Both the position numbers and the translations under genes were made by a program. The notes under the pieces were generated by a model that saw only the letters and a program-made list of their open reading frames with translations, did no database searches and had not been told where the DNA came from. From a virus (lineage: Duplodnaviria; Caudoviricetes): a stretch of 64,000 nt of DNA. Below, one piece after another: positions 3,211 through 47,528 of this stretch (position 1 is its first letter; each line of letters begins with the position of its first letter). The stretch spans positions 2,120 through 66,119 of the IMG/VR virus record IMGVR_UViG_3300027121_000002. The stretch is one strand, 5' to 3'.

Positions 3211-3549
3211 TTAACCAATAATACTCTCTCTCCAATCTTCACTCATATTCACCATAATTGCTTCTGCTGCTTCTGGGGTTTCGGCATATCCTTCATCAAG
3301 AAGGTGTGAGAGGATGATGTCGTAGAGGTCTACTTGTTCTTTTTGTTCTTTTTGTTCTTTTTTTTGTTTTACACCTCTTCTAGCATCGTGTGCGGCAACT
3401 CGTCTTTTATCTACATACCTATCACCAACCCATGGTGAATTTTCAACATACTTTTTATTTCTTAAATCTTTCTTTTCAAATCTATTCAGTTCTTCCATAA
3501 CAACTTCCAAATATGCTTCTTGAAGACTACGAAGTTCTTGTGAGTTCAT
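3211..3549 (-). CDS. Modular late protein (MNSQELxxLQEAY tag plus YDIILSHLLDEGYA module); putative internal virion protein
   Basis: TATAAATA upstream; modules near-identical to 46755..47528. Confidence 0.75.
   Translation of the reverse strand: MNSQELRSLQEAYLEVVMEELNRFEKKDLRNKKYVENSPWVGDRYVDKRRVAAHDARRGVKQKKEQKEQKEQVDLYDIILSHLLDEGYAETPEAAEAIMVNMSEDWRESIIG
3227..3324. repeat. 98-bp dispersed direct repeat, copy 1 (copy 2 at 47137..47234)
   Basis: 2 mismatches in 98 bp, first 74 bp exact; encodes YDIILSHLLDEGYAETPEAAEAIMVNMSEDWR. Confidence 0.95.
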
Positions 3550-3571
3550 TTTACAAATACTTTTTAGTTAT

Positions 3572-4207
3572 TTATATTTTAAAAGCAGTCCAACCTTTCT
3601 CTTGTTTCCTTTTACCAGAAACCACATCATAAAGATGTTTTAAATTATTTTGTCTTTGGAATTCTTTTAAATTATTGGTATTATATTTAACCCCATCTGG
3701 TGATATTATGACATAAGTATTTTTACAGACAGATTGAGTTCTTTTATCTACCAACTCTTTTGATAATTTTCTTCCTTTTAGAGTATTACTTATTTTTCTT
3801 TTTGTTTCCTCACTTTTTGGGGAATATATCCTACTCAAAGAACTTTGTCTTATTTTTTCTATTGCTTCTGGTGTGTGTTTCCACCCACTACATTTCTCTT
3901 TAAGAATTACTCTGGTGGAATCTTTGACTACTCTACCAGAAGCACCTTCACCACCAAAAGTTTTATTCAAAAGAATTCCACCATCAATCTTTCTGCCGAA
4001 CACACTTATCATATAAGTTTCGTGTTTAAATGCTTCCTCTTCTATAAGATTTTGTTTGAGAAAGATTATTCTATTTTTATCTTTTGGAACAGGACAAGGT
4101 TTTCCACTACCTTCAAATAATCTATATCTTACTCCCTTACCTATGTAATAAGGAGTTCTATCCTCACGTAAATAGGCATAGGTATAAAACCTGTTAGGAT
4201 TTACCAT
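3572..4207 (-). CDS. Free-standing homing endonuclease (GIY-YIG-like, NUMOD3 repeats)
   Basis: FYTYAYLREDRTPYYIGKG; LLNKTFGGEG; HTPEAIEKI and KSEETKRKIS repeats. Confidence 0.85.
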   Translation of the reverse strand: MVNPNRFYTYAYLREDRTPYYIGKGVRYRLFEGSGKPCPVPKDKNRIIFLKQNLIEEEAFKHETYMISVFGRKIDGGILLNKTFGGEGASGRVVKDSTRVILKEKCSGWKHTPEAIEKIRQSSLSRIYSPKSEETKRKISNTLKGRKLSKELVDKRTQSVCKNTYVIISPDGVKYNTNNLKEFQRQNNLKHLYDVVSGKRKQEKGWTAFKI

Positions 4208-4218
4208 TTCTACTCTTA

Positions 4219-4296
4219 AATTGGTTCGCAATAGTATTTATACAAGAAAAGGAGCATTTCTGCTCCCCCCCTCTACCTTAAAGATGCGAACCAATT
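4219..4296 (-). promoter_or_regulatory. Inverted repeat enclosing T4-type late promoter, upstream of HEG
   Basis: AATTGGTTCGCA (4219-4230) / TGCGAACCAATT (4285-4296); TATAAATA at 4235-4242 on minus strand; inner GGAGCA/TGCTCC hairpin. Confidence 0.75.
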
Positions 4297-4312
4297 AAGG
4301 CATTATTATTTA

Positions 4313-4984
4313 TCAATCAAAGATACGACCCCATCCGTCCCCTCCGGTAGGTGCCCAACGGTGCTTAAGAACTGCTTTAGTATAAATGGTTTTCTTACCA
4401 TTCGTTACGGGACCAGTATAATTGTCATTGAGAGAACCATAAGGATCATTAATATAATATCCCTTACCATCTGGAGTCTTACCAATGACCACGCACATGT
4501 GCCCACCAGTAGGAGAAGTTAGAGAACCACGGTGGAGAATACCAATAACAACAGGTTTTCCTCTATCAAGACTCTTATCAATATCAACAAAACTTAAATT
4601 ATAACTAAAGTGCGATTTAATACCATAACCTTGGAGAACTTTAGTCTGCACTGCATGGTCTGTAGTATCGCCAATCGCAAATACCTTTTTAACGTACTCA
4701 TCATCACCTTTAATGCTTCCTGGTTTAAGGAAAGCAAGACACATTGCACACGATGAAGAGTTGCAAGTTCTTTGTGCATCTCTATAGTTGTCTACTTGGT
4801 TAAAGTATGGAACATCAAGAACTGCTGGAGTTGGTGGTTTTGTTCTAAAAATTCCAATCCATTCAGATTCTGAGTCATCCATAAATTGAGCAGGAAGGTT
4901 ATCCTCTAACCATTGAACTGCAGATACATGATTGTCATTAGTGTCATCATAATATTTAAAAAAGTTATGAAGATCTAAAGTCAT
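4313..4984 (-). CDS. C39-like cysteine peptidase with N-terminal domain shared with the endolysin
   Basis: LDVPYFNQ, RTCNSSSCAM, GGHMCVVIG, YYINDPYG. Confidence 0.85.
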   Translation of the reverse strand: MTLDLHNFFKYYDDTNDNHVSAVQWLEDNLPAQFMDDSESEWIGIFRTKPPTPAVLDVPYFNQVDNYRDAQRTCNSSSCAMCLAFLKPGSIKGDDEYVKKVFAIGDTTDHAVQTKVLQGYGIKSHFSYNLSFVDIDKSLDRGKPVVIGILHRGSLTSPTGGHMCVVIGKTPDGKGYYINDPYGSLNDNYTGPVTNGKKTIYTKAVLKHRWAPTGGDGWGRIFD

Positions 4985-5013
4985 TTTTACCTGAAACTCG
5001 CCTAAAGTATTTA

Positions 5014-5202: not shown

Positions 5203-5218
5203 TATTTAGAGCAGAGTT
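5185..5218 (-). terminator. Intrinsic terminator after peroxiredoxin, with TAAATA in its loop
   Basis: AACTCTGCTC-TAAATAAT-GAGCAGAGTT followed by T-run on minus strand. Confidence 0.75.
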
Positions 5219-26030: not shown

Positions 26031-26138
26031 ATCCTATCACACGTTCAAAATTTTAGCAACATACCCCTTATGTTGTTCTATGTTACAAAAGACCAAAAGT
26101 ATTTTCTATAAATAATTTTAACGGAAGAAAGTATTTTT

Positions 26139-26996
26139 ATGGAATGGAAATATAACGAAGAAGATTTAATTGAAATCCCAAAAGAAATGGAAGGGTTTGT
26201 ATATTTAATTACTAATCTCACGAATAATAAAAAGTATGTTGGTAAGAAACATTTTTGGACTCGTCAAAAAGATAGAAAAACTGGAAGAAGAAAAAAGAAA
26301 GAAAGTGATTGGAGACATTATTATGGCTCTTGTGATGGATTAAAGGAAGATATTAATTTAATTGGAAAAGAAAATTTCTTGAGAGAAATACTTTATCTAT
26401 GTCCTCACAAAAAATCTATGTCTTATTTTGAAACTTATGAACAATTTAAAAGAAATGTGTTAATGACTGACGAATATTATAATACAAATATTGAAGGAAG
26501 ATTTTTTGTAACCGAAAGAGCAGGGATATATGAAGTAGTATTAAAGAATGATAAATTTAGAGAATTGGCAAAAGATAGAATGATTGGAGAAAACAATCCA
26601 GCAAAAAGACCAGAAGTTAGAGAAAAATTAAGTGAGATGTTTTCTGGTGAAGGAAATCCTATGTATGGTTCAAAACTTACCGATGAACATAAAGAAAAAT
26701 TATTTTCGTCAAGAAAAAAAGCAATAACAGATGGAATTAACACTTGGGATAGTGTAATTTCTTATATGAAAGAAAAAGATATTCATTGGAACAAGTATAT
26801 AGAATTAATTGAAAAAAATAAAATATTTTATGTTGATGGGAATCCTATAAATTTAAAAACAATAAAAAATAAAATAAATCATAATTTAAAATTATGGGAA
26901 TGTTTAATCACTGGATATATTTCTACTGCTTCTGGTCTTTCAATATACCAAAAAAATAGAAATATTGATATTTTACAAAGAAAAGAGTTTAAATAA
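26139..26996 (+). CDS. GIY-YIG endonuclease (EndoII/DenA-like catalytic domain plus NUMOD3 extension), inverted orientation
   Basis: GFVYLITN..KKYVGKK, ESDWRHYYGS, YYNTNI; GENNPA and GEGNPMYG repeats; TATAAATA at 26107. Confidence 0.85.
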   Translation: MEWKYNEEDLIEIPKEMEGFVYLITNLTNNKKYVGKKHFWTRQKDRKTGRRKKKESDWRHYYGSCDGLKEDINLIGKENFLREILYLCPHKKSMSYFETYEQFKRNVLMTDEYYNTNIEGRFFVTERAGIYEVVLKNDKFRELAKDRMIGENNPAKRPEVREKLSEMFSGEGNPMYGSKLTDEHKEKLFSSRKKAITDGINTWDSVISYMKEKDIHWNKYIELIEKNKIFYVDGNPINLKTIKNKINHNLKLWECLITGYISTASGLSIYQKNRNIDILQRKEFK

Positions 26997-27227: not shown

Positions 27228-28856
27228 TTATCCTTCTATAATTTGGTTGAACCAACCTTCACTCATATTGTTGATAATTGCATTTGCATCTTCAACTGTT
27301 GATGCAAAATTATTTTCAAGAAGATATGATGCTACAAACTCATATGCTTCATATGACTCTCTATTGAGTTGCTTTTTCTCTCTAGGGGTCAGAACACCTC
27401 TTTGTGCTCCTCTTGCTGCCTGCTTTGCTTTTACGGCAGGGTCATTGGACTGGTGAGCATATCCGTGAAGACCAGGATTTGAAGAAGTTGTCTTACGGAA
27501 ATCACCTCTCTGTGTTCTTGCAAATCTATCTCTTGCCGATCCACTACCTCTAAAAGTTTGCCTATCTGCTAATGCAGTTGCTCTATCAGCAGCCTCTCCT
27601 CCACCTGTTGATTTTGCAATCTTATTACGAATTTCGGTTTCATCATGACCTCTCTTAGCCATCGCAGTTGCTTCATCAATCTCAACTTCTTCATTATATG
27701 ACTTATTTCTAACTGCTGCGATTGCTTCTGCCTTAGACATTCCAGATGCAATCATTCTTGCAATTCTTACATCTGCAAAGTCATTATCACCATCTTGGTC
27801 TTGGTCTTTTTTCTTTGCTTCGTAGATTGAAGCATAAGCACCTGCAATATCTCTAATTGTTTTTGCAGAAGGCCATTCGTAAGATTCTGGTTTCATTTGT
27901 ATTGGTTTAGTCTTTGTATTATTTATAGGTTTTGGTTCAATTCCTTGAGAAGCACCTGCAATCTGTGAAGGTGTAGGTGCTGGTGCTGGTTTTACTGGTA
28001 ATGCTTTAGCAGCCGCAGAACCTGCGGGTGCTCTATTCAAATTTTGTACTGTGTTTGCTCGTGCTAGATCTCTACCTATACTTCCCAAATCAGGGGTTGC
28101 AGAAGTTGGTCCAGTTGTAGGAAGATTGGTCTTCTGTGCTGCTTGAAGTGCCTTTTCTGAATTCTGTTTTGTACTAGTATTTTCTCCAGCAGATTTTTGT
28201 CTTGCTCTTTCTCCTTGTGCTGCTTTAAGTTCAGCAGAAGTTGGTGTTCTTCTTTCAAATGAAGTGTTTCCTAACTTTCCAATTGCTGGTGTTGGGGGTT
28301 TTGGTGCCGATGATGCAGAATTCCTTGCTGCATTTTGTGCGGCAACACTTGCATAACGGGACTTCTCTGTGGCAGTAAATGCTCTTGCTTTAAAATTAGC
28401 ACCAACTCCTGTTCCTTCTACTCCGTCTTTCTTTGAAAGAACTGGAGCAGACGATGCTGGTCTTGGTGGAGGTGTTGAACCTGAACCTGCTGCTGGTCTT
28501 TGTGATTGTGCTGCTTTTGCTTTTTCTGCCTTATCTGCTGCTGCAATAGCAGCATTTTGTGCTCTTGATATTCTTACTTCTTGTTGTTTTTTATTCAAGT
28601 CAGCAGCAAGTTTCTGAGCTCTTAGTTGTTGCCTTTTGCCTGCTTGACTACTGGTCATCCATTCCCAATCGCTAGTCAAATTTGGATCGACTTTTCCCGT
28701 TGCTACAAATTTACCACCTCTACTTACTACCCCTAATCCAGCACGTTCATTTCTGTATTTAATTTGATCTGGTGTAAGTGGACCTTCATTCAACTGCTCC
28801 CCACTATAAACACCCAAATACAACTCATTCAAGGCGTCCAAATCTTTTCTATTCAT
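27228..28856 (-). CDS. Large low-complexity modular late protein (putative internal virion polyprotein)
   Basis: ATAAATA upstream; Pro/Ala/Lys-rich; DQDQDGDNDFAD; C-terminal YEFVASYLLENNFA..ANAIINNMSEGW module. Confidence 0.7.
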   Translation of the reverse strand: MNRKDLDALNELYLGVYSGEQLNEGPLTPDQIKYRNERAGLGVVSRGGKFVATGKVDPNLTSDWEWMTSSQAGKRQQLRAQKLAADLNKKQQEVRISRAQNAAIAAADKAEKAKAAQSQRPAAGSGSTPPPRPASSAPVLSKKDGVEGTGVGANFKARAFTATEKSRYASVAAQNAARNSASSAPKPPTPAIGKLGNTSFERRTPTSAELKAAQGERARQKSAGENTSTKQNSEKALQAAQKTNLPTTGPTSATPDLGSIGRDLARANTVQNLNRAPAGSAAAKALPVKPAPAPTPSQIAGASQGIEPKPINNTKTKPIQMKPESYEWPSAKTIRDIAGAYASIYEAKKKDQDQDGDNDFADVRIARMIASGMSKAEAIAAVRNKSYNEEVEIDEATAMAKRGHDETEIRNKIAKSTGGGEAADRATALADRQTFRGSGSARDRFARTQRGDFRKTTSSNPGLHGYAHQSNDPAVKAKQAARGAQRGVLTPREKKQLNRESYEAYEFVASYLLENNFASTVEDANAIINNMSEGWFNQIIEG

Positions 28857-28903: not shown

Positions 28904-29494
28904 TTATTTACTCGCAGATGGTGAAACCTTAGCATATACCATTCTTTTTCCAAATTCATTTGCTGTAGAGACTGGTGCTAAATCTTTTGCTGTTCTCAAA
29001 CTCAAATCCATCTTAACTTCTTTATTAGTATCTCCTGCTCTTCCAAAATTACCAGTATCTTGAACTGAAGTTTTAACAACCTTTGTTGCTGTTCCCATAG
29101 GTTTTGTTGTGAGGTCCATTTTAGTACCAAAAGGTGTAGATGGAGTACCTTTCCACACTCCTTTTGGTACTTCCTTCTCTTTGTACTTATAAGGAACAGC
29201 AACTAATCTCTGATTATCATCAAATTTGTGCCCACTAGCAGTTTTTGGCCCTGGTGTATCTGCTTTACTATAAGAACTTACCTTTACTGGTTTCCATCCA
29301 TATCTTTGTTGCTCCTCATCACTATGTGTTCTTTGAGTGAATTTACCAGTATCTTTATCCAAAACACCTGATTGATAATTCTTATAAGCTAAAACTTTAT
29401 TGGAAGGTTTTGGTTTTGGGGTTTCACCAAACCCAAAAAGTTCTTGTATTTGGTATGCTTCGATACAAAACTGTTTAAATGTTTTCATAATCAA
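28904..29494 (-). CDS. RlpA-like (DPBB) lytic-transglycosylase-like protein with capsid-targeting-like N-terminus
   Basis: MKTFKQFCIEA; TASGHKFD, PFGT, VQDTG, MDLS motifs. Confidence 0.65.
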   Translation of the reverse strand: MIMKTFKQFCIEAYQIQELFGFGETPKPKPSNKVLAYKNYQSGVLDKDTGKFTQRTHSDEEQQRYGWKPVKVSSYSKADTPGPKTASGHKFDDNQRLVAVPYKYKEKEVPKGVWKGTPSTPFGTKMDLTTKPMGTATKVVKTSVQDTGNFGRAGDTNKEVKMDLSLRTAKDLAPVSTANEFGKRMVYAKVSPSASK

Positions 29495-31083
29495 TCAACA
29501 AACTGTTTCCAGTATTCATAAGAAGACATCTCTTCTCCCATACCTCTTCTTGCTTTTTTACGTGCTCTTTGTGTTTGTTTAGTAGATTTTGGAGCACCTG
29601 AGTTAGCTCTTATTCCTATATTAGTATCTCCTGGTTTATTTTCCTTACCAACTCTTTTTGGAACTATATCTCCAACTTTTCCTTTTCCTTTTGGTTTTCT
29701 TGTAGCAGGTCTTGATTGATATGCTACAACTTTAGCCTGGGGTGCAGCAGCACTTGCGGCAGCAGCCATAGCTCTTGTATTACCAAGGTGATCATCTGTT
29801 GTTATTTCTTTCCTATCACTTGGGTCTACAATTTTTGAAACTAATTTACCCTTTTTTTTAGGACCAGAAAGACCTTTATTTGGTCCTTTACTCATTCCAC
29901 CAGTAAAATGAACATCTTTTCTTTTCAGACCTCTTATTCCAATTCTGTCCCTCAAATCCTTCGCAAATGATCCGGGGTCATCCATAGGAGTGCTAGGTTT
30001 ATTACTTCCAAATGCAGATCCCCCACGAGCAGTAACAACAGATTTTTTTGCGGGTCTTCTTGGACTATCTCCCATTCCAGCTACTTTTGTTTTTTTAGTA
30101 GTTTTTTTGAATTTATCTGTATCTCTAAATTCATCAAATCCATATTCATGTTTGGGTTCAAGTGGGGTATGGGCAAATTCACTGGGGGTCATTGCTTTAA
30201 CGTGTTTATAGGAACCTGAGTCCTTTTTGTGTAAATCAATTTTAGCAGCATCTGGATGTCTTTGGTCTGCGACATTATCATCCACATCATGTATAACGTG
30301 TGTTTTGCTAACTTTGGGAACAGGTTTTCCTTCTTTATTATATCCTTTCTTTCCAGCATTTTTTGCTCTTCTTTCAGTTCTTGAACGTTTTGCTTCTTCA
30401 ATATACTCTTCAAGAATAACTGCTACAAATTCACTACTCATATGTTCGAACATATTTTCAGCAGTTTCATAACTCTCTGCATAATCTGCAGCAACCAAAG
30501 TTTCAATTACATAGTTGTAAATATTTTCTGTTTCTTCTCTTTGTGCCGCATAATAAGCACCAAGTGCTCTCTTAATTCTTTGCTTTTTGCTATCACCCTT
30601 GAAAGTTTTGCTTTTTGAATGAACGAAATCACTGATTGTCGCACCAGCATCAGCACCCACATCAATCTTTTCATCAAGTTCAAACTCTTCGTTTCTATCT
30701 GCTTTTTGTTTTTTTCTAGTTTCAGCAGCACTAACTACACTCATTTTGTTAAATTTTCTGGTTGCTTCCATTTCAGAATCACTGACTGGAGAAGAATCCC
30801 CTTTGTCTCTAGCATATAGAGAACCTTTTTTTACTTTTTCTTTTTTTGCTTCTACTTTTTCAAAAGGAAATGGACGTTTTTCTTCATCAAGTTCAGTTTC
30901 TTCTTTCTTTACTGACGCAACAAAACTTGGAAGTTGTGGTCCTGCTTTCTTTGCTCTTGCTGCTCTTCTACGAGCAATTTCTTTATCTGCTTTACTTGCA
31001 AATTCTGGTTGTCCCGCAACGTCTGGATGTTCTGCTGCAACACCCTCACTGTAAATTCTTTTGAACTTAGAAATTCCAGACAT
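29491..31083 (-). CDS. Modular late protein with shared module and HAD-like domain
   Basis: TATAAATA upstream; YNYVIETLVAADYAESYETAENMFEHMS; HDVDDN / VVTARG / TDDHLGN. Confidence 0.65.
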   Translation of the reverse strand: MSGISKFKRIYSEGVAAEHPDVAGQPEFASKADKEIARRRAARAKKAGPQLPSFVASVKKEETELDEEKRPFPFEKVEAKKEKVKKGSLYARDKGDSSPVSDSEMEATRKFNKMSVVSAAETRKKQKADRNEEFELDEKIDVGADAGATISDFVHSKSKTFKGDSKKQRIKRALGAYYAAQREETENIYNYVIETLVAADYAESYETAENMFEHMSSEFVAVILEEYIEEAKRSRTERRAKNAGKKGYNKEGKPVPKVSKTHVIHDVDDNVADQRHPDAAKIDLHKKDSGSYKHVKAMTPSEFAHTPLEPKHEYGFDEFRDTDKFKKTTKKTKVAGMGDSPRRPAKKSVVTARGGSAFGSNKPSTPMDDPGSFAKDLRDRIGIRGLKRKDVHFTGGMSKGPNKGLSGPKKKGKLVSKIVDPSDRKEITTDDHLGNTRAMAAAASAAAPQAKVVAYQSRPATRKPKGKGKVGDIVPKRVGKENKPGDTNIGIRANSGAPKSTKQTQRARKKARRGMGEEMSSYEYWKQFVD

Positions 31084-31110
31084 ATGAATAAGTAATACTT
31101 TTTTTTATTT

Positions 31111-31137
31111 ATAAAAAAAAGAGGGGTCGTAACCCCT
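31111..31137 (-). terminator. Intrinsic terminator
   Basis: GAGGGGT-(loop)-ACCCCTC followed by long T-run on minus strand. Confidence 0.8.
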
Positions 31138-31592
31138 CATATTACATTTAATCCTGGTTTTAATACTTCATATTCTCCATTGTTAAAAATAACACCAGAA
31201 TAATAGTCTTTACCATTGAACTCACAAAACATATTATATTCTCTACTATCTTCAAATGGTGTTATATCTATTAAGTTTCCATAAGTATTTTTCCAGATGC
31301 TATGGTATATCGCACATCCATAATTCTCATCATCAATATCTGTAATTAGATAATATCCACTTATTCTTTCCCCCCCATAAGTATTTACATACTTATTTAC
31401 ATTATTGTGGCAGTTTGCATCAGAACATAGAGGTTTAACTACCACAGGAACTTTCAATAGAATAGAAGAAAAACTACAATACTCTTGAAGTTTTATTACA
31501 CACTCATCTTCTGGTAGTGATATTCTAAATTTTCTCTTCAATACTCCACCCATTTCTTCTTGGACCTCTTCTATCATACTTAATTGCGGCAC
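31137..31592 (-). CDS. Hypothetical protein
   Basis: NCHNNV...HSIW...LIDITP; true start probably downstream of 31592. Confidence 0.7.
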   Translation of the reverse strand: MPQLSMIEEVQEEMGGVLKRKFRISLPEDECVIKLQEYCSFSSILLKVPVVVKPLCSDANCHNNVNKYVNTYGGERISGYYLITDIDDENYGCAIYHSIWKNTYGNLIDITPFEDSREYNMFCEFNGKDYYSGVIFNNGEYEVLKPGLNVI

Positions 31593-32259
31593 TCATAGTA
31601 GCATATGAGATATTTTGAGATTTACAAAACTCCTTTAATCCACCAACAATAACATATTCTTTATTTTCTGGAGATGTGAGTTTCCAAATTTTTGCAGATG
31701 GTGGTTTAAAACCTGCAGCATATCTTTCCTTTGCCTTTTCACTTATTTTTCTTTTTCTTTCTTCACTACAAGGAATACCATAACTTGGATTATTCTCTCC
31801 CGCAACCTTTTTACTTATTTTCCTTTTTGTTTCTTCACTATGTTTTTTAGGTCCATATCCACCAACAGAAAGTTGCAAATTTCTTCTTTTTTCTATTTGG
31901 TCTTCCCACTTATCACCATATATTTCTTGGTATGTTTTTCCTCTATGATTTGGTGGTCTTGAGCTTTCACAAATATTTGTTAATATTCCACCCTCATCAT
32001 ATCGTATTCTTCCATATTTTTGTATTAATGATTCTTCATAAAAATAAGCATCATTTTCATTTTCAAAATATTCAACTATTTTGACTTCTGGTTCATACCC
32101 CTCCTTTCTTATTTTTTGTATTTTATTAAATTTTCTTTCATTATCACTTTTTGCTCTTGTTTTTTCGGACAAATGAAAATAAACCCGATCATCTTTTCCC
32201 TTTCCAACATAAAAAGGCAGATTGACTCTTGGGTCTATTAATTCATAAACATAATACAT
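31525..32259 (-). CDS. Homing endonuclease (GIY-YIG-like, NUMOD3)
   Basis: YYVYELIDPR..PFYVGKG; HSEETKRKIS; GENNPSYG. Confidence 0.85.
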   Translation of the reverse strand: MYYVYELIDPRVNLPFYVGKGKDDRVYFHLSEKTRAKSDNERKFNKIQKIRKEGYEPEVKIVEYFENENDAYFYEESLIQKYGRIRYDEGGILTNICESSRPPNHRGKTYQEIYGDKWEDQIEKRRNLQLSVGGYGPKKHSEETKRKISKKVAGENNPSYGIPCSEERKRKISEKAKERYAAGFKPPSAKIWKLTSPENKEYVIVGGLKEFCKSQNISYATMSAAIKYDRRGPRRNGWSIEEKI

Positions 32260-32320
32260 AAACAAGAAACTGAACTCTAATACTATTTATATAATATTAT
32301 ATTTCAGTTTCTTGTATTAG

Positions 32321-33505
32321 TCAAAGTTGAAATCCAGCAAATGTGTTTGCAGCAACATCTTGTTTAATTCCACCAACAATATAAGACTGCACCTGCGTTT
32401 GTTGTGGGCTGACTTGAAGTCCTTTGGAACTAATCCAATGCTCTGTCCAAGGAAGAGGATTGTTCTTAGCAGAAATATCATAAAGTGGTTTAATACCAAT
32501 AGATTTCATTCGACGATTAGCAATCCACTCAACATAACTCCAAAGGAGTTTGTCGTTCAATCCAATCATTGAACCATCTTTAAACAAATACTCTGCCCAC
32601 CTTTTCTCCTCATTTACACAATTATCAAAAGCACTTCTTACCCATTCCTCTTCTTCTTTAGAAATTTGTTGCATTTCTGCATCATCTCCTTCACGCCACT
32701 TATTGAGGATGTTTTGAGTAATGACAAGGTGCTGATTTTCGTCTCTTGCGATGAGAGAGATAATTTTAGCGGATCCTTCCATAAGTTTGAGTTCACCAAA
32801 CGCAAAGCTGCAAGCGAACGAAACGTAAAACCTGATACCTTCGAGAATATTGACATTTGCGACTGCACGATAGAGTTTTCTTTTGAGTTCAATACGTTCA
32901 TCTTTCGCATATCCAGCACCTTCTTGTGCGTGAACCCAAAGATTTGAGTTTCCATAAAGTTGTGCGGAATTAATAAAGTCATCATAAGCACCAGTAACTG
33001 ATGATGCTCTTTCTAAAATCTTTTCATTATTTAAAATGGAATCAAAAACTTCTGTTGGATCAGAATAAACATTCTTAATAATGTATGTATAGGAACGACT
33101 ATGGATCATCTCCATAAACTCCCAAACCTTCATACAGGCTTCCAATTCTGGAAGTGAACAGTAAGGTGCAAATGCCATCCCTGGACCACGACCTTGAACT
33201 GAATCCAAAAGAATTTGATACTTCAAATTAGAAGTAAAGATGTGCTTTTGTTCTGGACGAAGAGTTTGATAATCCGAACGATCTTTCTGCAAAGAAACTT
33301 CTTCAGGTCTCCAGAAATATCCTAACTGTTGTTGAGTTAATTTATCAAAGACAGGATACTTATAAGAATCATATCTTTGAACTCCAAGAGGAGCACCAAA
33401 AAACATAGGTTGCTTTTTGGCATCTACCTCTTGAGTATTAAATACGGTCATTCCTTCAATCATTTTTTCTTTCTCTGCAGTGATTCTAAATTTTACAGGA
33501 TTCAC
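32321..33505 (-). CDS. nrdB: Ribonucleotide reductase class Ia beta subunit
   Basis: FWRPEEV, LLDSVQGR, EMIHSRSY, LEGIRFYVSF, RDENQH. Confidence 0.97.
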   Translation of the reverse strand: MNPVKFRITAEKEKMIEGMTVFNTQEVDAKKQPMFFGAPLGVQRYDSYKYPVFDKLTQQQLGYFWRPEEVSLQKDRSDYQTLRPEQKHIFTSNLKYQILLDSVQGRGPGMAFAPYCSLPELEACMKVWEFMEMIHSRSYTYIIKNVYSDPTEVFDSILNNEKILERASSVTGAYDDFINSAQLYGNSNLWVHAQEGAGYAKDERIELKRKLYRAVANVNILEGIRFYVSFACSFAFGELKLMEGSAKIISLIARDENQHLVITQNILNKWREGDDAEMQQISKEEEEWVRSAFDNCVNEEKRWAEYLFKDGSMIGLNDKLLWSYVEWIANRRMKSIGIKPLYDISAKNNPLPWTEHWISSKGLQVSPQQTQVQSYIVGGIKQDVAANTFAGFQL

Positions 33506-34580
33506 AGTCGTCTTCCCCCCCTTCTAAAAGTTCTTTAACCAAATCGTCAATATTAGTTTTTTCCTCCTTAATTTCGTCGGTCTTATTGTCATATGTATTT
33601 TGATAATATGCCGTCTTATGCCCAAGTTTAAAACAAGTAAGCATATCTTGTGCCATTACGCTAACAGGAACTTCATTATTGGTATAATTTTCTGGATTAT
33701 ACGACCAGTTTCCAGAAATTGCTTGATCGAAGAATTTCTGCATAACTGCAACAATATTAATATAACCACGATTGCTAGGCATATCCCAAAGCAACGTATA
33801 GTTGTTTTTAAGATGTTGATATTGTGGAACAATTTGTTTGAGAGGACCTTTTTTAGATTTCTTAATTGATAAAAATCCACGAGGTGGTTCGATGCCGTTT
33901 GTGGCATTGGAGACGACAGAACTGGATTCAGATGGCATCTGTGCCGTAAGAGTGGAGTGCCTGAGACCAAACTCTTTGATTGATTGCCTTAACGCTTCCC
34001 AATCGTGCTGAAGAGCAACAGAAGAAACTTCATCCACATCTTTCTTGTAAGTATCAATTGGAAGAATACCTTGCGAATACTTAGTGCGATTAAAATATTC
34101 ACAGGCACCCTTTTCTTTAGCAACTTCATTTGATGCTTTTAGAAGGAAATATTGGAACGATTCAGACAATTGATGAACCGCATCCCAAGCTTCTTGAGTA
34201 TCGTAATTAAAACCAAGTTTAGCAAGATAGTGTGCCAAACCAATGTACCCAACACCCAAAGATCTACGTGCTTTGGTTCCAATCTCTGCAGCAACTACAG
34301 GATAGTTTTGATAATCAATCAATTCTTCCAAACCACGAACAGAAAGATTACAAAGATCTTCAAATTCATCATCAGACTTTACTTTGCCAACATTAACAGC
34401 AGAAAGAATACAAAGTGCAATCTCCCCATTGGGATCATCAATGTGTTGAAGTGGTTTTGTTGGAAGAGTAATTTCCTGGCAATTATGGACTAGAATATCA
34501 TTTGCGAAGAAATTATGAGTTCCTTCTACTGTAATATCATAAACTGGGATTTCTTCTTCAAGATATTCAATCTTTAGCAT
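33486..34580 (-). CDS. nrdA: NrdA C-terminal fragment with 33-aa C-intein
   Basis: MLKIEY..PVYDITVEGTHNFFANDILVHN|CQEITLP; MPSESSS; C-terminal CESC. Confidence 0.95.
   Translation of the reverse strand: MLKIEYLEEEIPVYDITVEGTHNFFANDILVHNCQEITLPTKPLQHIDDPNGEIALCILSAVNVGKVKSDDEFEDLCNLSVRGLEELIDYQNYPVVAAEIGTKARRSLGVGYIGLAHYLAKLGFNYDTQEAWDAVHQLSESFQYFLLKASNEVAKEKGACEYFNRTKYSQGILPIDTYKKDVDEVSSVALQHDWEALRQSIKEFGLRHSTLTAQMPSESSSVVSNATNGIEPPRGFLSIKKSKKGPLKQIVPQYQHLKNNYTLLWDMPSNRGYINIVAVMQKFFDQAISGNWSYNPENYTNNEVPVSVMAQDMLTCFKLGHKTAYYQNTYDNKTDEIKEEKTNIDDLVKELLEGGEDDCESCKI
34482..34580 (-). mobile_element. Split intein C-fragment (NrdA)
   Basis: Block F VYDITV and block G HN followed by +1 Cys. Confidence 0.93.
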
Positions 34581-35245
34581 TTTTTTCTCCTATTTTGTTC
34601 TAAAAGTTGTTTAGCAAGTTTTCTTTGAGTTTCGTCTCTATAATAAGGATTATACACCAATCCAGTTTGTTCTTCAATAGATTTATAAAAGTTTTGATGG
34701 TTTCCGTCAAATCTATTTTTGGAGAAATGTTTTGGAAACTTAATATTTAATTCACTAAGAGCAAACTCAACTATTCTTTTCCTTCCACCAATAAATCCAT
34801 ATTTTTTAGCAAACTTTACACCTACTTCTATGAGTTCCTCATCAGTGTATCCAGAATAGTTTGGATTATTGTAACCAATAGTTCTTATGGAAATACCATT
34901 TCTCCACTCTTCCTGAACCTCCTGTGAGCATCTTGGAAGCATCCATCCACCAGTTCCCCCCGAAGTAGCATTATAACCTTTAGTATCACTTTCAAAGAGT
35001 TTAATGAAGTGAGTTTCCTTTTCATTAATAAAGTTTTCATCTTCAGTTTGGTAAGTTTCAATCACAGATAAGTCCCAACAATCTTCCCCATATTTTCTAA
35101 TAGCAGAATGAAATCTAAATTTAGAACCATTTCTTGCTGATGATAAATGACGATTCCAACGATGCTCTAATGGATATTCAGATTTTCCTATATAAGACTT
35201 TCCGTTTTTCTTATTCGTAATTTTATATACAATATAGGTTTTCAT
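34574..35245 (-). CDS. GIY-YIG homing endonuclease between split nrdA halves
   Basis: IVYKITN..NGKSYIGK, RW..H, GYNATSGG. Confidence 0.9.
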   Translation of the reverse strand: MKTYIVYKITNKKNGKSYIGKSEYPLEHRWNRHLSSARNGSKFRFHSAIRKYGEDCWDLSVIETYQTEDENFINEKETHFIKLFESDTKGYNATSGGTGGWMLPRCSQEVQEEWRNGISIRTIGYNNPNYSGYTDEELIEVGVKFAKKYGFIGGRKRIVEFALSELNIKFPKHFSKNRFDGNHQNFYKSIEEQTGLVYNPYYRDETQRKLAKQLLEQNRRKKC

Positions 35246-35304
35246 AATAGGAAGTGTAATCTCATAACTATTTATAAAATGTAGAAATTACACTCCCTAT
35301 CCTA

Positions 35305-37011
35305 TTAGTTAATTACCAACTCATCGGTTTCGGTTAGGTCTTTTGCCACTACATATCCACGATTTTTTGTGAATACTTGATGCTCTGGTGTAACTACAAT
35401 ACTCTTACCACTTTCTTCATCAGTAATTTTCATTACCTTTGCTTTTGGTGATGTTTCGGCAAATGCTGTAATAGGTGCCCATTCTTGTTGATTAGTTTCT
35501 ATATTATAAGAAAGAACTTCTATTTGAGGAACATCATCACAAAGACATGCAATTATAGCTATCCTATCAGAAAGGTAAATTTCTAAATCTTCAATATGAA
35601 TTTCAATCTCACAAACTCTCCAATCAGATACTTCACCAATATCATTATAAATGGGTTCTGGATATCTAATTTTGATTTTAGTATCACCAGAAACACAAAG
35701 ATTACTCATCTCAACCTTATCCATAAAGGATGAGTGAGAATTGCAATGGTCGATATTCATAATGTAAATACGACCAGTTTCAGCACGTTCTTTCAGGAGG
35801 TCCAGAAAGAGTTCTTGAGCTCCGATAGTCTTTCTAGGAATAGACTCATCTCGTTCGTAACGTACATATAACTCGTCAAAAGCATCAGTTCCAAAAGCAT
35901 CATACAGACCAGGAACTGCGTGTGGGGAGAAGAGAGAGACCTCTTCATTCTTGATGAATCGTTCATAGAACAGTTTAGAGATTTGGATAGAGTAGTCTAA
36001 CTTACGAACACGGTTGTCTTCGGTTCCTTTGTTATTTTTTAGTACTAGGATATCTTCGATTTCTTGGTGCCAGATTGGGAAGTGGACAGTTGCTGATCCA
36101 CCTCTGATGCCATTTTGAGTGCAGCATCGGACAGTTGCTTCAAACTTCTTGAGGAATGGGACAACACCTGTGTGCTGAACTTCTCCACCTCTGATTTTAG
36201 CGTTGATGCCACGGATTCTACCTGCGTTGATGCCGATTCCCGCCCTTTGTGCAACATACCTGCCGATAGCCATATCAGAACTAAAGATGCTATCGAGGGT
36301 GTCATCAACATCAACAAGAACACAGCTAGCAAATTGTCGAAGTGGAGTTCGCACTCCTGCCATGATAGGTGTGGGAATGTTGATTTTGTGTTTGGAGATT
36401 GCGTCGTAGTATCGTTTGACATAAGAAATTCTAGTTTCTTTTGGATATCTAGCAAAAATAGTCGCAGAAATCATCATATACATGAACTGTGGAGTTTCAT
36501 ATACTTGCCCAGCACTACGGTCTTGAACAAGATACTTATCAACTACTTGACGAAGACCAGCATAAGTAAATAGATAATCACGGTTATGATTAATATAACC
36601 ACCAAGACGATTAAGTTCTTCCTCTGTATAGTTAGTCAAGATTTCTGAATCATATACTCCAGCAAAAACACATTTCTTAATATGATCTACAAAAGTAGGA
36701 TGATCTTGAACTCTTCCATACAAAGATTTTCTCACCGAAAACAGAAGTAGTCTTGCTGCAACAAATTGATAATTTGGATTTTCCAAATCAATCAAATCAG
36801 ATGCAGAACGAATTAAAATTTCCTGAATTTCTGCTGTTGTAATTCCATCATAGAATTGAATACCAGATTGCATCTCGACCTGTGATGCAGAAACACCAGA
36901 GAGGTCCCTACATGCCTCCTCAACCATTAAGTGAAGTTTATTGAGATCAAGAGGTTCATTATCACCACTTCTCTTAATTACCTTTGTACCGTTGCTCATA
37001 CTCGTTTCCAT
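35305..37011 (-). CDS. nrdA: NrdA N-terminal fragment with 130-aa N-intein
   Basis: ATP cone; PTPIMAG..QFASC; ETGRIY..MSNL|CVSGDTKI...TPEHQVFT. Confidence 0.95.
   Translation of the reverse strand: METSMSNGTKVIKRSGDNEPLDLNKLHLMVEEACRDLSGVSASQVEMQSGIQFYDGITTAEIQEILIRSASDLIDLENPNYQFVAARLLLFSVRKSLYGRVQDHPTFVDHIKKCVFAGVYDSEILTNYTEEELNRLGGYINHNRDYLFTYAGLRQVVDKYLVQDRSAGQVYETPQFMYMMISATIFARYPKETRISYVKRYYDAISKHKINIPTPIMAGVRTPLRQFASCVLVDVDDTLDSIFSSDMAIGRYVAQRAGIGINAGRIRGINAKIRGGEVQHTGVVPFLKKFEATVRCCTQNGIRGGSATVHFPIWHQEIEDILVLKNNKGTEDNRVRKLDYSIQISKLFYERFIKNEEVSLFSPHAVPGLYDAFGTDAFDELYVRYERDESIPRKTIGAQELFLDLLKERAETGRIYIMNIDHCNSHSSFMDKVEMSNLCVSGDTKIKIRYPEPIYNDIGEVSDWRVCEIEIHIEDLEIYLSDRIAIIACLCDDVPQIEVLSYNIETNQQEWAPITAFAETSPKAKVMKITDEESGKSIVVTPEHQVFTKNRGYVVAKDLTETDELVIN
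35308..35697 (-). mobile_element. Split intein N-fragment (NrdA)
   Basis: Block A CVSGDT; block B TPEH. Confidence 0.92.
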
Positions 37012-44086: not shown

Positions 44087-44800
44087 TTAAAATTTAAATC
44101 CTGAAAATTTACTTTTTTTATCTTCTTCATAAGTATACTCTTCTTCTTGTCCTGAGTCAAGTTTTTTTATGCTCCATCCTTTATAAGTTTTTCTTTCCCC
44201 TTTTAAAATTCTAGTAAAATAACTTTGAGAAAAATTATTTTCCCTACAAAATTTTGCTAAATTTTTTATTATCAATACCATTCCATTTTTATTTTCCAGT
44301 TCATATGTATTTTTACAATGAGACTTTGAAATTTTTTCTTTACAACTTTCAGTCAAGTTTCTTCCAGTTTTATATACAATCATTTTATCAACTGTTTCTT
44401 TTGAAAGAACTTTTCCTTTATGTGCTTTGCTTAATTTTTGTTTATGTTCTTCACTTAAAGTTTTACCAAGAAGTTTTTGCCTTCTTTTTTCTATGGAACT
44501 TTGTGATTGTTTAAATCCTCTAGAACACTTACCACCTTCTTTGATATTAAATCCATTATTTACAGTATCATAATATTGAATCCAATATTTTTCCCTTTCA
44601 TCTAATAGATTTATATTTTCAACTTCTTCAAGTATACCATAAACAAAATTATATTTACTATATTTTTGTATTGCTCTACTAATTTTAGTTTCATTAATTG
44701 TTCTAAAATGACGAAGAATTCTTCTCTGTAATTTTTCTACAGTTTGTCCTATGTATTTTTTACCAGTAGTTAAATTATGAATACAGTAAATAATTCCCAT
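44087..44800 (-). CDS. GIY-YIG homing endonuclease ending in a duplicate of the gp41 C-terminus
   Basis: GIIYCIHN..GKKYIGQT; GFNIKEGG; ends LDSGQEEEY..KSKFSGFKF. Confidence 0.9.
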   Translation of the reverse strand: MGIIYCIHNLTTGKKYIGQTVEKLQRRILRHFRTINETKISRAIQKYSKYNFVYGILEEVENINLLDEREKYWIQYYDTVNNGFNIKEGGKCSRGFKQSQSSIEKRRQKLLGKTLSEEHKQKLSKAHKGKVLSKETVDKMIVYKTGRNLTESCKEKISKSHCKNTYELENKNGMVLIIKNLAKFCRENNFSQSYFTRILKGERKTYKGWSIKKLDSGQEEEYTYEEDKKSKFSGFKF

Positions 44801-45978
44801 TAGAATTTAAATCCAGAAAATTTATTAGTTTTTGATTCACTATTTCTTTCTGGTGATTCGTATTCCTCATCTTTTCCAGAATTAATAATATCTTTTTGTG
44901 CAGATTGTTCGCAATCATAGAGACGCATTTTTTCTCTATCAACACCAACAACAAACCTCTTATATTTATCAGTTGAAGAATAACGGTTCTTCAATTGTTT
45001 CACCATAATCTGTCCCAACCCCTCCAACTCTTCTGTGCTAATAAGGGCAAACATAAGGTCAGCAGTAGCAGGAAGACCAAAGGATTCACTAGTATCAGTA
45101 AGGTCAGGATCGGAGCTAGAAAAACCACTACGAGTAGTCTGGGTAGCGGAAACAATTGGAACATTTGCTTCAACTGCAAGACCACGAAGTTCTTCCGCAA
45201 TTGCTTTGACATAAGAGTAAGAATTGACTGAAAAATTACTCTTATATCTTGAGGACCCACAAATATTAAGGTAGTCAATGAAAATAATATCAGGTTTAAA
45301 TGATTTCTTAAGAGAGAGTTCATTAAGAAGTGCTCTAAAATGACCTGCGTGTGCCGAAGCAGTTGGATACTCTTTGATAATCAGAGTTCCTTGTGTTTTC
45401 TTCGCAATATTATTTACTTTCGTATCAAACATTACTTTTGGCAATGTTTCAATATCTTTGATATTAACATTTAAGAGATTTGCGTCAATTCGTTCAGCAA
45501 TTTTCTCCTCTGCCATTTCAAGCGTAATGTACAATACGTTCCGTCCTTGGAGCAACACGGAGCTAGCCACATGGCACATAAACAAGGATTTACCTACACC
45601 TGTATTGTGAGAAGAAACACCATTAGTATAATACCTATGATTTGGATGATTTACATTAATATCAACAATAGGTATTTGATTTCCTGTCTTAAAGACACTT
45701 CCAAGTTTATAACCATTTTTAGTTATAAAATGATTTGTCTTATATTTTTCATAAAGGTGTGATGCTTTCATCCACCCAAAAGATGTTTCAAATAAATGGT
45801 CAGCATTACATCTCACAGGTTCTCCATCATCAACCTTTAAAACATATTCATCATACATTCCTTTGTTAATGAAGAAATTGACTGGAACATATCCATCAGG
45901 CGAATCAACTTCTACCTCATATCCATTATCAAGTAATGTTTTGATTTCAGCAATTGTTGTTTCTTTTTCAATCCACAT
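44800..45978 (-). CDS. gp41: Replicative helicase C-terminal fragment with 125-aa C-intein
   Basis: ...HRYYTNGVSSHN|TGVGKS; YITLEM; IDYLN; SATQTTR; SESFGLPATAD. Confidence 0.95.
   Translation of the reverse strand: MWIEKETTIAEIKTLLDNGYEVEVDSPDGYVPVNFFINKGMYDEYVLKVDDGEPVRCNADHLFETSFGWMKASHLYEKYKTNHFITKNGYKLGSVFKTGNQIPIVDINVNHPNHRYYTNGVSSHNTGVGKSLFMCHVASSVLLQGRNVLYITLEMAEEKIAERIDANLLNVNIKDIETLPKVMFDTKVNNIAKKTQGTLIIKEYPTASAHAGHFRALLNELSLKKSFKPDIIFIDYLNICGSSRYKSNFSVNSYSYVKAIAEELRGLAVEANVPIVSATQTTRSGFSSSDPDLTDTSESFGLPATADLMFALISTEELEGLGQIMVKQLKNRYSSTDKYKRFVVGVDREKMRLYDCEQSAQKDIINSGKDEEYESPERNSESKTNKFSGFKF
45604..45978 (-). mobile_element. Atypical split intein, large C-fragment (gp41)
   Basis: Contains block B (CNADH), block F (IVDINV) and block G (SHN); +1 Thr. 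Confidence 0.9.
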
Positions 45979-46018
45979 TTTATATAAATAATAGTATTAG
46001 CAGTAGCAGGGACAGGGA

Positions 46019-46681
46019 ATGTTTGATCGTATCTATTCTAACCTATGTGAAGGTAATAAGTCAAGAAGAGAAAACTATAAAAAATATTCAGGACTACACG
46101 AACACCATATTGTTCCTAAACATATGGGAGGAACAGATGATGATTGCAACCTTACATACTTGAATGTTAGAGAACATATCATAGCACATTATTTACTTTG
46201 GAAGATTTACAAAAATCCAAATGATTTAAGATCTATGAAAATGTTGGGAGCAAACTTATCACCTCAACACAGAAAAATAATAGGAGAGTTTTGTAGAGAT
46301 AATCAACTTGGTTTCTTTTCAACACCAGTAGAAGAAAGAAAAGAATGGATGATTAGAGGAATAGAAACTCAAAAACAAGAATATTTAAATGATAAAGTTA
46401 AAAATTTTTATTATTGGAGCACAGAAGAAGGCAGAAAGGAAAGAGCATCTCTTGGAGGCAAGAAGAGAGCATCAAAAGAATTTAATTACTGGGCATCCAA
46501 TCAAGGAAGACAAGAAAGAGCATCTCTTGGAGGAAAAGCACACAAAGGTAAGAAGGTAATGCACTTACCAGGAACAAAAGGATGGAAAAGAATACTTCCA
46601 GAAGATGTTGATATGAAGTCAAACGAGGGTTGGAAATTTGGAACTGGAGAACCAGCACCAAATTCTAAAGTTAAAAAATAA
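46019..46681 (+). CDS. HNH homing endonuclease, inverted, inside split gp41 locus
   Basis: HEHHIVPKHMGG.D...NL..L..REH..AH; TATAAATA at 45983. Confidence 0.9.
   Translation: MFDRIYSNLCEGNKSRRENYKKYSGLHEHHIVPKHMGGTDDDCNLTYLNVREHIIAHYLLWKIYKNPNDLRSMKMLGANLSPQHRKIIGEFCRDNQLGFFSTPVEERKEWMIRGIETQKQEYLNDKVKNFYYWSTEEGRKERASLGGKKRASKEFNYWASNQGRQERASLGGKAHKGKKVMHLPGTKGWKRILPEDVDMKSNEGWKFGTGEPAPNSKVKK
46035..46064 (-). promoter_or_regulatory. Candidate sigma70-like promoter for gp41 C-fragment, embedded antisense in the HNH gene
   Basis: TTGACT-N18-TAGAAT, ~55 bp upstream of ATG 45978. Confidence 0.55.
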
Positions 46682-46701
46682 TAGTTAAAATTGATATGAA
46701 T

Positions 46702-46734
46702 AAAAAACCACTCAATAAGTGAGTGGTTGAAAAA
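46702..46734. terminator. Terminator between converging HNH and cargo genes
   Basis: AACCACTC-(7 nt)-GAGTGGTT; T-run follows on minus strand. Confidence 0.75.
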
Positions 46735-46754
46735 GATTTTATGATTTTATCAAA

Positions 46755-47528
46755 TCATCTTTTATTCCTGTTATAAGTTGCTCTTACGGCATCAAAAGAT
46801 ACTCTATCCTTTTCCTTCTCATCATCAGGAAGTTGGGAGTATGGAGTATCTGCAAGTTTTGCTCTTTTTGCTTTCTTTTCTGGTGTTTGGTCTGTGCTTG
46901 TTCTCGCAGTTTTTGCCCATCCCTGATGAACTGCATCAGCACCTGCTTCTCTTGAAGTGCCACTTCCACTTCTTAATCCTCTTCTAATCGCACGAAGAGC
47001 AGCAGCAGCAGAGGAACGATTTGCTGCCCTACCAAAAGAACGCTTATCACCAGATGCTCTACCATATCCATATCTTGAATCTAATGCTGCATCAGATGCT
47101 TTTTCATATTCACTATCTTCTTTCTCCATAATATCATCTCTCCAATCTTCACTCATATTCACCATAATTGCTTCTGCTGCTTCTGGGGTTTCGGCATATC
47201 CTTCATCAAGTAAGTGTGAGAGGATGATGTCGTAAATGTCTTCCGTTATACCCATTCTTTTCCTTGCTCTTTCCTTTTCTTGCTTACTTGCGGCACGAAC
47301 TCCTGATAATACTTGTCTGTCGTATTTGCGCTTACTTTTTGGTAATCTCTGTGGTCCTCTTACATAAGTAACACCACCAAGAGTTCCTTGACTACTTCTG
47401 CTTTGTGATAATTCTGGAGTTATTAAAGGTCGTCCGTGTCTCTGATTATACTGAAATCTTCCTCCTTCGGCACCTTCAACAACTTCCATATATGCTTCTT
47501 GAAGGGCACGAATTTCTTGTGAGTTCAT
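46755..47528 (-). CDS. Modular late protein with C-terminal RyR-like domain, inserted between split gp41 halves
   Basis: MNSQEIRALQEAY tag; YDIILSHLLDEGYA module; VHQGWAK...TPYSQLPDDEKEKDR. Confidence 0.75.
   Translation of the reverse strand: MNSQEIRALQEAYMEVVEGAEGGRFQYNQRHGRPLITPELSQSRSSQGTLGGVTYVRGPQRLPKSKRKYDRQVLSGVRAASKQEKERARKRMGITEDIYDIILSHLLDEGYAETPEAAEAIMVNMSEDWRDDIMEKEDSEYEKASDAALDSRYGYGRASGDKRSFGRAANRSSAAAALRAIRRGLRSGSGTSREAGADAVHQGWAKTARTSTDQTPEKKAKRAKLADTPYSQLPDDEKEKDRVSFDAVRATYNRNKR
47137..47234. repeat. 98-bp dispersed direct repeat, copy 2
   Basis: 96/98 identical to 3227..3324. Confidence 0.95.

Follow-up and report, generated by a model that had tools for sequence, protein, structure and literature searches.

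A modular late-gene family of T4-like cyanophages with DNA-conserved ends, exchanged parts and homing endonuclease neighbours

The described system closest to the genes reported here is that of the internal proteins IPI, IPII and IPIII and of Alt in bacteriophage T4. According to passages of PMC9026906, the first 10 residues of IPIII suffice for head incorporation, residues 8 and 10 govern cleavage by gp21, and Alt carries propeptides at both ends that are trimmed at both; further passages there and in PMC3012670 portray the internal-protein loci as highly diverse behind a constant leader, and those of PMC3012670 present the proteins as counter-defence tools, IPI for example being directed against a restriction enzyme. 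In a 64-kilobase (kb) window, by which we mean the whole stretch of DNA analysed, from a 66-kb viral contig (IMG/VR record IMGVR_UViG_3300027121_000002), we have studied four genes, termed gene A, gene B and the 542- and 530-amino-acid (aa) members, that invite comparison with these T4 proteins. As in T4, they appear to be late genes for basic proteins, with very diverse mature parts behind a constant start, in which a short propeptide-type N terminus ends in (L/I)-x-E followed by Ala some 10-11 residues in; a C-terminal propeptide is known from Alt, and open reading frames (ORFs) with T4-type starts lie beside the family genes. In contrast to T4, where the start reads M-K-T-Y-Q-E-F-I-A-E, the leader of the family has a different sequence, an acidic module (a predicted dimeriser) that T4 lacks is present, domain order varies, copies are dispersed over many genome sites, and packaging and cleavage are predictions.

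The PeSL promoter/stem-loop cassettes of T4-type phages, ascribed to Arbiol et al. 2010, are said to be non-coding early regulatory units. Going by that description, they resemble the present family in that recombination takes place at short conserved stretches of DNA that flank variable genes or lie between them, and differ from it in that the family's blocks are coding (leader and module) and its promoter is of the late type. Endonuclease-flanked mobile gene cassettes and intronless homing in T4-like phages, with break-induced recombination proposed as the driver, are described in passages of Sullivan et al. 2010 (PMC3037559). As in those passages, cargo genes here sit beside free-standing endonucleases at varying genome positions; unlike the cassettes described there, a single family is involved, its constant coding ends are usable as homology arms, and the interior of the gene changes along with its position. 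For fractured genes, finally, the relevant passages of Dassa et al. 2009 (PMC2677866) describe only an endonuclease between the halves.

The window belongs to a T4-like cyanomyovirus, and the contig is estimated to be 34% complete. It encodes UvsX, gp43, gp41, a gp46-like protein and ribonucleotide reductase, and by the genes studied its nearest isolates are S-SRM01 and S-CRM01, two freshwater Synechococcus phages. The late-promoter motif TATAAATA occurs 16 times, against 7.9 expected from shuffles, always on the same strand as the gene downstream; two matches are on the plus strand, each ahead of one of the two plus-strand endonuclease genes. It is well supported by our comparisons that the four genes represent a modular late-gene family with ends conserved as DNA and parts that are exchanged, which is strongly associated with homing endonucleases and rides into fractured genes.

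A family with constant ends and exchanged parts

The four members and their promoter motifs are placed as follows (nt, nucleotides).

3211..3549 (-), gene A: 112 aa; leader 3499..3549, unique basic middle, C-terminal module 3214..3330 ending I-I-G and stop
46755..47528 (-), gene B: 257 aa; leader 47478..47528, basic middle, module 47124..47240 ending I-M-E, 122-aa helical C-domain 46758..47120
27228..28856 (-), 542-aa member: variant leader, Ala/Pro/Lys-rich middle, C-terminal module 27234..27350
29491..31083 (-), 530-aa member: internal diverged module 30409..30525, without a canonical leader
3569..3576 (-), TATAAATA late-promoter motif of gene A: 20 nt upstream, overlapping the stop codon of the endonuclease gene
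47551..47558 (-), TATAAATA of gene B: 22 nt upstream, overlapping the stop of the gp41 N-part
31106..31113 (-), TATAAATA of the 530-aa member: exact motif upstream

A first-pass annotation of this DNA had described constant blocks around swappable payloads, and the counts on which it relied are exact. Genes A and B agree at 45 of their first 50 bases and at 96 of the 98 bases of a module block (3227..3324 against 47137..47234), and their protein alignment consists of an identical leader and module with an unalignable middle, gene B alone of the two having the further C-terminal domain of 122 aa. The family genes of the window start M-N-S-Q-E..L-Q-E-A-Y. The diverged modules reported for the 542-aa and 530-aa members were recovered by a profile built from the four modules, which converged after one round.

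Judged by sequence, these four genes are members of a very large, unnamed late-gene family of T4-like cyanophages. Related loci were located by degenerate peptide patterns of leader and module; two scans of viral contigs yielded more than 371 and more than 558 confirmed loci, and 148 were kept and joined by two isolate loci and the window, the ORF calls being our own and related contigs not being independent of each other. These 150 related loci and the window hold 192 module proteins (132 unique), of 52 to 542 aa and with intact frames. A protein search with gene B found 2829 proteins at E<=0.001 among 8000 scored, all of them unnamed or 'hypothetical' and none with a Pfam domain, while a module profile matched 4196 representatives of 50%-identity clusters at E<=0.001 and 2465 at E<=1e-10. 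Pfam and NCBIfam hold no family for these proteins, and the PHROGs returned a single weak match, of gene A to phrog_3708 (function unknown). A literature search found no published description of the family; 'capsid targeting sequence' and 'cyanophage' co-occurred only in the T4 review, whose one returned cyanophage passage is a reference title.

Module matches number 5 and 7 in two complete viral genomes, 4 each in a 78%-complete genome, S-SRM01 and S-CRM01 (g93, g94, g291 and g292 in the latter), and 2 each in the marine phages P-SSM2 and S-CAM7. Distant members retain the module as a protein at only 28-44% identity, and marine phages keep it too. A gene of P-SSM2 in the uvsY–uvsW interval, PSSM2_140 (L151:3959-4114), encodes a stand-alone module of 51 aa, and 52-aa ORFs resembling it occur in freshwater contigs (L023:4865-5023; L118:6143-6301). 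Such a stand-alone protein of 51-52 aa could be the ancestral or free form of a pairing domain.

The layout of the proteins is regular: an acidic leader of 17 residues, a basic and variable middle, a nearly invariant acidic helical module of 39 residues and optional C-terminal domains. The leader is present in 110 of the 132 unique proteins. Among 109 single-module proteins, it is negatively charged in 108 (median -3), the module in all 109 (median -9), and the middle is positive in 107 (median +7), with a median length of 83 residues and a range of 47-485; 62 proteins have C-terminal extensions, 55 of them basic. In an alignment of 57 full-length relatives of gene B, leader, module and C-domain are conserved, whereas the middles sort into a number of discrete types without relation to one another. 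Weak likeness to RyR is seen in the C-domain of gene B (18 bits to PF02026 against a cut-off of 27.4), with 11 of 57 homologues matching at E<=0.01; a Foldseek search of the gene B model against the PDB returned nothing at E<=0.001, a bacterial/human RyR chimera ranking 29th with a probability of 0.38. Behind the leader, a second acidic cassette, W-V-x-x-L-L-[ED]-E-G-Y-D-L-S-x-Y-[ST]-W-D-[ED], recurs in L001:5064-6260, L001:7724-9322, L152:2035-3495 and P0054, and its carriers include gp210 of the marine phage S-CAM7, behind which lies an HNH endonuclease gene.

Individual parts reappear in other company. The middle of gene B is 77-86% identical to that of genes between gp46 and a peptidase gene, 66% identical in another gene at the gp41 site, and 59% identical within a protein of different start. 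Its C-domain recurs at 81-92% identity in 16 unique proteins from at least 7 genomic contexts, either after the module or directly behind the leader, and residues 388-500 of the 542-aa member are found at 66-72% identity right behind the leader of other, shorter members. For the middle of gene A, no relative was found at E<=1e-4 in these loci. As judged from these alignments, middles and C-domains pass from gene to gene and from one genome site to another, with parts recurring at other sites and in other orders; this aspect of the first-pass annotation is borne out.

The constant parts are also unusually alike as DNA, as the following pairwise comparisons show (third-position identity is given at identical residues throughout).

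Module (100 unique canonical copies, 4944 pairs): nucleotide identity 0.879; third-position identity 0.816; expectation from codon usage 0.54
Leader (110 unique): nucleotide identity 0.81; third-position identity 0.863
nrdB: nucleotide identity 0.778; third-position identity 0.626; expectation from codon usage 0.51
gp46: nucleotide identity 0.733; third-position identity 0.611
Three other neighbour genes: third-position identity 0.57-0.67

Even four- and six-fold degenerate codons are nearly fixed in the module: of 100 copies, 94 use a single Ser codon at one position and 85 a single Val codon at another. Since the locus search used degenerate peptide patterns, synonymous sites were not selected on. 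At the level of these alignments, leader and module are thus shown to be conserved as DNA beyond what the protein requires, and the synonymous-site excess points to frequent homogenising recombination, recent spread or selection on the DNA itself. Because this conservation runs through the whole family, the close match of genes A and B is ordinary for its members: their identity of 93.5% over 108 nt stands at the 95th percentile of the 4944 between-contig pairs, which average 87.9%. Recent gene conversion within this genome was considered as the cause of the 96/98 block and rejected, the pair being no closer than are the top 5% of between-contig pairs and closer copies of each gene existing in other contigs.

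The first-pass annotation had placed a T4-type late promoter just upstream of all four genes. An exact TATAAATA does stand 20-22 nt upstream of three, but the 542-aa gene has one-mismatch versions only. Across the loci, 76 of 107 family genes have TATAAATA within 60 nt of the leader start codon, 58 of them at a spacing of 19-20 nt; for other genes the count is 84 of 746. By this motif, the family is probably transcribed late. In four river metatranscriptomes compared with 44700..48300, contigs fall mostly over gp41; such contigs show neither start nor level of transcription, and DNA carry-over is possible. One library holds a 222-base contig, 47331..47552, which covers the 5' part of gene B and ends one base inside TATAAATA; the other three cover only the flanks of gene B.

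Homing endonuclease neighbours and fractured genes

The window contains at least 7 endonuclease-like ORFs, about one per 9 kb.

3572..4231 (-), NUMOD3 free-standing homing endonuclease directly upstream of gene A: phrog_15526/10829/314; own TATAAATA at 4235..4242; cluster 1, 61 members
26139..26996 (+), SegE-type GIY-YIG homing endonuclease: convergent with the 542-aa gene, 231 bases away; TATAAATA at 26107..26114
31525..32265 (-), GIY-YIG/NUMOD3 homing endonuclease: between nrdB and a three-gene cluster, one gene from the 530-aa member
34574..35245, GIY-YIG endonuclease between the NrdA parts
44087..44800, endonuclease-like ORF
46019..46681 (+), HNH homing endonuclease: convergent with gene B; own TATAAATA at 45983..45990
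52922..53515, endonuclease-like ORF with many NUMOD3 repeats: may be frameshifted relative to 52450..52884

That genes A and B each adjoin an endonuclease gene had been noticed in the first reading, but a tally of two is too low: three of the four members touch one, the third contact being that of 26139..26996 with the 542-aa gene (27228..28856), an arrangement also found in phage S-SRM01. Beyond the window, adjacency was counted in the 104 loci left after those with identical module-protein sets had been removed. There, 49 of the 139 family genes and 80 of the 995 other genes have an endonuclease as neighbour, and 56 of 75 endonuclease genes touch a family gene, each endonuclease cluster having been classed by us through a single PHROG-annotated representative. 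In 5000 within-locus shuffles the count of 49 averaged 19.3 (standard deviation 3.3) and never rose above 33. An adjacency no higher than that of random late genes would have contradicted the first-pass annotation; with isolate records left out, 48 of 135 family genes have such a neighbour against 1 of 45 other genes with the late-promoter motif (Fisher p=1.6e-6), and the annotation passes this test. A cluster of EndoVII-like genes (cluster 24), upstream of 11 family genes, was left out as a possible resolvase, and its inclusion would raise the adjacency.

Adjacency occurs at at least 9 genome sites and involves four endonuclease clusters, and it is therefore not one inherited arrangement. Family genes and endonucleases meet downstream of nrdB and of gp46, within gp41, in the gap that separates the lysin genes, in that separating psbA from psbD, near porin and pstS genes and at other sites, and the same site can be found with and without the endonuclease, the family gene following nrdB either directly or after an endonuclease gene. 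An apparent split gene, in which two members of one cluster (c2) flank an EndoVII gene and a family gene, was rejected as such, the flanks being the homologous psbA and psbD and not halves of one gene.

Gene B and its convergent HNH endonuclease sit between two parts of gp41 (44800..48189), which have the following features.

47554..48189 (-), gp41 helicase N-part: matches phrog_19 positions 161-361; ends in about 17 residues beginning with Cys
44800..45978 (-), gp41 helicase C-part: residues 1-125 without helicase match, ending H-N before T-G-V-G-K-S; residues 126-382 match phrog_19 positions 362-599

The end of about 17 residues on the N-part can be read as a short N-intein piece, and residues 1-125 of the C-part as the C-intein piece. 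The gene has the make-up of a fractured gene, with two collinear parts, Cys and H-N/T junctions and an HNH gene between; no Pfam intein match was found for the gp41 parts. With its break at the P-loop and about 17 residues facing about 125, the split is unusually asymmetric for a natural one. Likeness to the fractured genes in the passages of PMC2677866 extends to a gp41 split in place with UvsX and a 2-oxoglutarate (2OG) oxygenase upstream, to intein pieces at the cut ends and to an endonuclease with a T4-type late promoter between them; in contrast to those passages, a family gene here also lies between the halves, the split is at the P-loop and the N-intein piece has about 17 residues. In related contigs the gp41 gap holds a family gene with a GIY-YIG endonuclease, one with an HNH endonuclease, or one alone.

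The NrdA gene of the same window (33486..37011, -) is a textbook case of such a fracture, with an N-part at 35305..37011, a C-part at 33486..34580 and the GIY-YIG gene between. Its parts give partial Intein_splicing matches of 29.9 and 30.8 bits, against a cut-off of 35.8.

The surroundings of gene A are formed by two lysin genes.

2406..3092 (-), lysozyme-type lysin: downstream of gene A; N-terminal domain of about 55 aa in common with 4313..4984
4313..4984 (-), peptidase-type lysin: upstream of the endonuclease gene 3572..4231

Both are spanned by phrog_3617 (peptidase part, profile positions 1-232; lysozyme part, 245-404), and the lysins may be fused in relatives. The order lysin, endonuclease, family gene, lysin recurs in other contigs.

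All of this could be viewed from the DNA side alone, the constant blocks being mainly DNA elements, that is, endonuclease sites or recombination handles of a selfish cassette, and the proteins being of little function. Synonymous sites of leader and module conserved well above background, the strong endonuclease adjacency, and family genes inside a fractured gp41, where only an endonuclease is expected, would all suit this explanation. We nevertheless consider it very improbable, since the module is kept as a protein by distant members at only 28-44% identity and by marine phages as well, 107-109 of 109 proteins follow the charge pattern, all 132 unique proteins have intact frames, and 87 of 135 family genes have no endonuclease neighbour.

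Possible relation to T4 internal proteins

The reading that we prefer for the proteins, although we hold its chances to be about even, is that the family is the cyanophage counterpart of the T4 internal proteins, targeted by its leader, processed by a protease and packaged in the head. The leader would act like the T4 capsid targeting sequence and bring the protein into the prohead core, where a gp21-type protease would cut past the Glu of the leader and also at the I-x-E that follows the module; the basic parts would remain on the head DNA and reach the host together with it. Where a neighbouring endonuclease makes a double-strand break, repair would draw on co-infecting relatives and cross over within the constant blocks, and such repair would swap payloads and move whole genes to new sites. 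A packaging-tag system of this kind had been proposed in the first-pass annotation. The cassette family, payload exchange and endonuclease adjacency that it presupposed have held up; head targeting and processing we still infer, now on stronger grounds.

Several observations bear on the comparison. In the T4 record, IPII and IPIII begin M-K-T-Y-Q-E-F-I-A-E-A and IPI begins M-K-T-F-K-E-F. The candidate cleavage site of the family is in the corresponding position, with L-Q-E-A at residues 9-12 against I-A-E-A at 8-11 in T4. According to PMC9026906, exchanging the cleavage-site Glu for Asp prevents processing in T4 and leaves targeting intact. It is at residues 9-12 in 98 of 109 proteins, a count that shows which residues are fixed and not that a site exists, the leader pattern having already required a site of this kind. 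The mature part is basic and highly variable, as in T4. At the other end, the module closes with G and stop in 47 of the 54 proteins that end there and with E (I-x-E) in 43 of the 55 that continue for at least 5 residues. The earlier idea that module boundaries fall at (I/L)xE sites consequently holds behind the module, but before it the residues are mostly E-Q-V or E-E-V.

ORFs with a T4-like targeting motif occur in the same neighbourhoods, and one of them lies between the two long family genes of the window.

28904..29488 (-), ORF with ATG start M-K-T-F-K-Q-F: 6/7 identical to T4 IPI; the ATG is 3 bases past the upstream stop

Including this one, 25 unique ORFs in these loci start with the motif, several of them 9/10 identical to IPIII, and many are immediate neighbours of family genes. 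A degenerate DNA pattern of the motif gave 12 matches in five genomes, all on the coding strand, and its reversed control gave 0. Elsewhere in the window, a 62-aa ORF just upstream of an endonuclease gene (53614..53802, -) starts M-K-S-F-R-E-F, which resembles the T4 targeting motif. In a further ORF family, a T4-like motif is followed at once by C-W-P-G-Y-x-K-K-G-T-K-K (L053:2445-3593, L023:2316-3638, L118:3661-4965), and the latter motif is also found inside S-CREM2 gp160, behind an internal L-E-E (L156:4343-5236). S-CREM2 gp160 and the motif-bearing neighbours have a 39-residue motif in common at 62% identity, and gp160 was detected in purified virions with 7 unique peptides, according to Table 3 of PMC10665884. 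This supports packaging of the neighbours, not of the family itself. The S-CREM2 paper (PMC10665884) also states that virion proteins have been reported for S-CRM01, which has four module matches.

A number of points tell against packaging or against the part given to the endonucleases. None of the four family genes has the T4 motif M-K-T-[FY]-x-E-F, the L/I-x-E-A core alone being in common. The module is absent from S-SM1, Syn9, S-PM2 and S-CREM2, the four phages with virion proteomes that were searched for it, and because it is absent there these proteomes say nothing about the family. With no (I/L)xE site ahead of the module, it is unexplained how a basic middle would come free cleanly when the module is C-terminal. 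AlphaFold values for the gene B monomer (predicted local distance difference test, pLDDT) are only 60-75 for the module and below 50 for residues 1-80, against 82-96 for the C-domain. The amino-acid conservation of leader and module is in part ascertainment, the loci having been found by peptides of both, and the family and endonuclease counts come from partly non-independent related contigs, both of which limit the counts. Finally, an endonuclease gene often separates the family gene from a core gene such as nrdB, gp46 or gp41; the core gene may be their target and the association may reflect shared permissive gaps.

Leader and middle are disordered in the AlphaFold model. The possibility that leader and module form one discontinuous folded domain was not supported by it, residues 1-80 being below 50 and the leader helix not packing on the module. 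Matches of the module profile to PDB sequences proved to be repeat-summed hits of 14 residues to designer pentatricopeptide proteins, which reflect likeness of helical hairpins and not homology. When the module was modelled as a homodimer, it scored 0.64 against 0.01 for the best of 3 controls, with contacts agreeing 100% between runs and partner pLDDT of at least 91; of proteins with solved structures, 20 of 30 pairs and 1 of 23 single chains reach the mark for such scores. The predicted interface is formed by module residues 14-17 and 21-33, its most invariant part. The prediction lends support to pairing of the module with itself.

A passing dimer prediction would also suit late intracellular proteins that are not packaged, dimeric and DNA-binding or host-directed (in counter-defence, for example), with a basic part caught up in an arms race and ends kept constant by folding and pairing. 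Basic disordered middles are apt for nucleic-acid binding anywhere, the virion proteomes consulted come only from phages that lack the module, and the family leader departs from the T4 motif. This alternative, which we think rather unlikely, leaves unexplained why L-x-E-A keeps a fixed distance from the start in 98 of 109 proteins, why the end of the module switches between E and G with continuation, why the genes cluster with T4-motif ORFs and why synonymous sites are conserved.

A small helical pairing domain is typical of scaffolds. The proteins could be accessories of the prohead core or scaffold, entering by leader and pairing module and being cut up and gone before DNA is packaged, with nothing injected. 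The evidence of leader, protease site and late promoter is the same as for packaged internal proteins, and each of the two acidic constant parts looks like a propeptide. A scaffold component is as a rule conserved and encoded once, however, whereas the genomes counted have 4-7 dispersed module matches each and payload types run into the thousands, and strongly basic payloads better fit DNA-associated contents of the head; we regard this explanation as unlikely.

Packaging as internal proteins, our preferred reading, also has a bolder form, which we offer as a speculative and on balance doubtful proposal: a combinatorial head-cargo system, in which thousands of basic payloads stand between two acidic handles, the cleaved leader and the pairing module. 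Paralogues would co-assemble through the module and load into the capsid, and endonucleases would rewrite payloads and move them about, inteins of essential genes included, with the handles serving as homology arms.

Implications for cyanophage biology

Whatever the proteins do, the family offers a clear natural case of within-gene exchange at DNA-conserved blocks that is statistically tied to homing endonucleases, and it indicates that split-intein fractured genes can hold passenger genes. If the proteins are packaged, they would be the cyanophage equivalent of the injected internal proteins of T4 on a far larger scale, with at least 4196 sequence clusters, and much of the arms race of abundant aquatic phages with cyanobacteria would be fought out in this family, as one of its main arenas; the leader would then be a ready-made tag to load foreign proteins into cyanophage heads. 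Should the combinatorial head-cargo system prove true, endonuclease homing would generate the diversity of injected proteins and would not be purely selfish spread.

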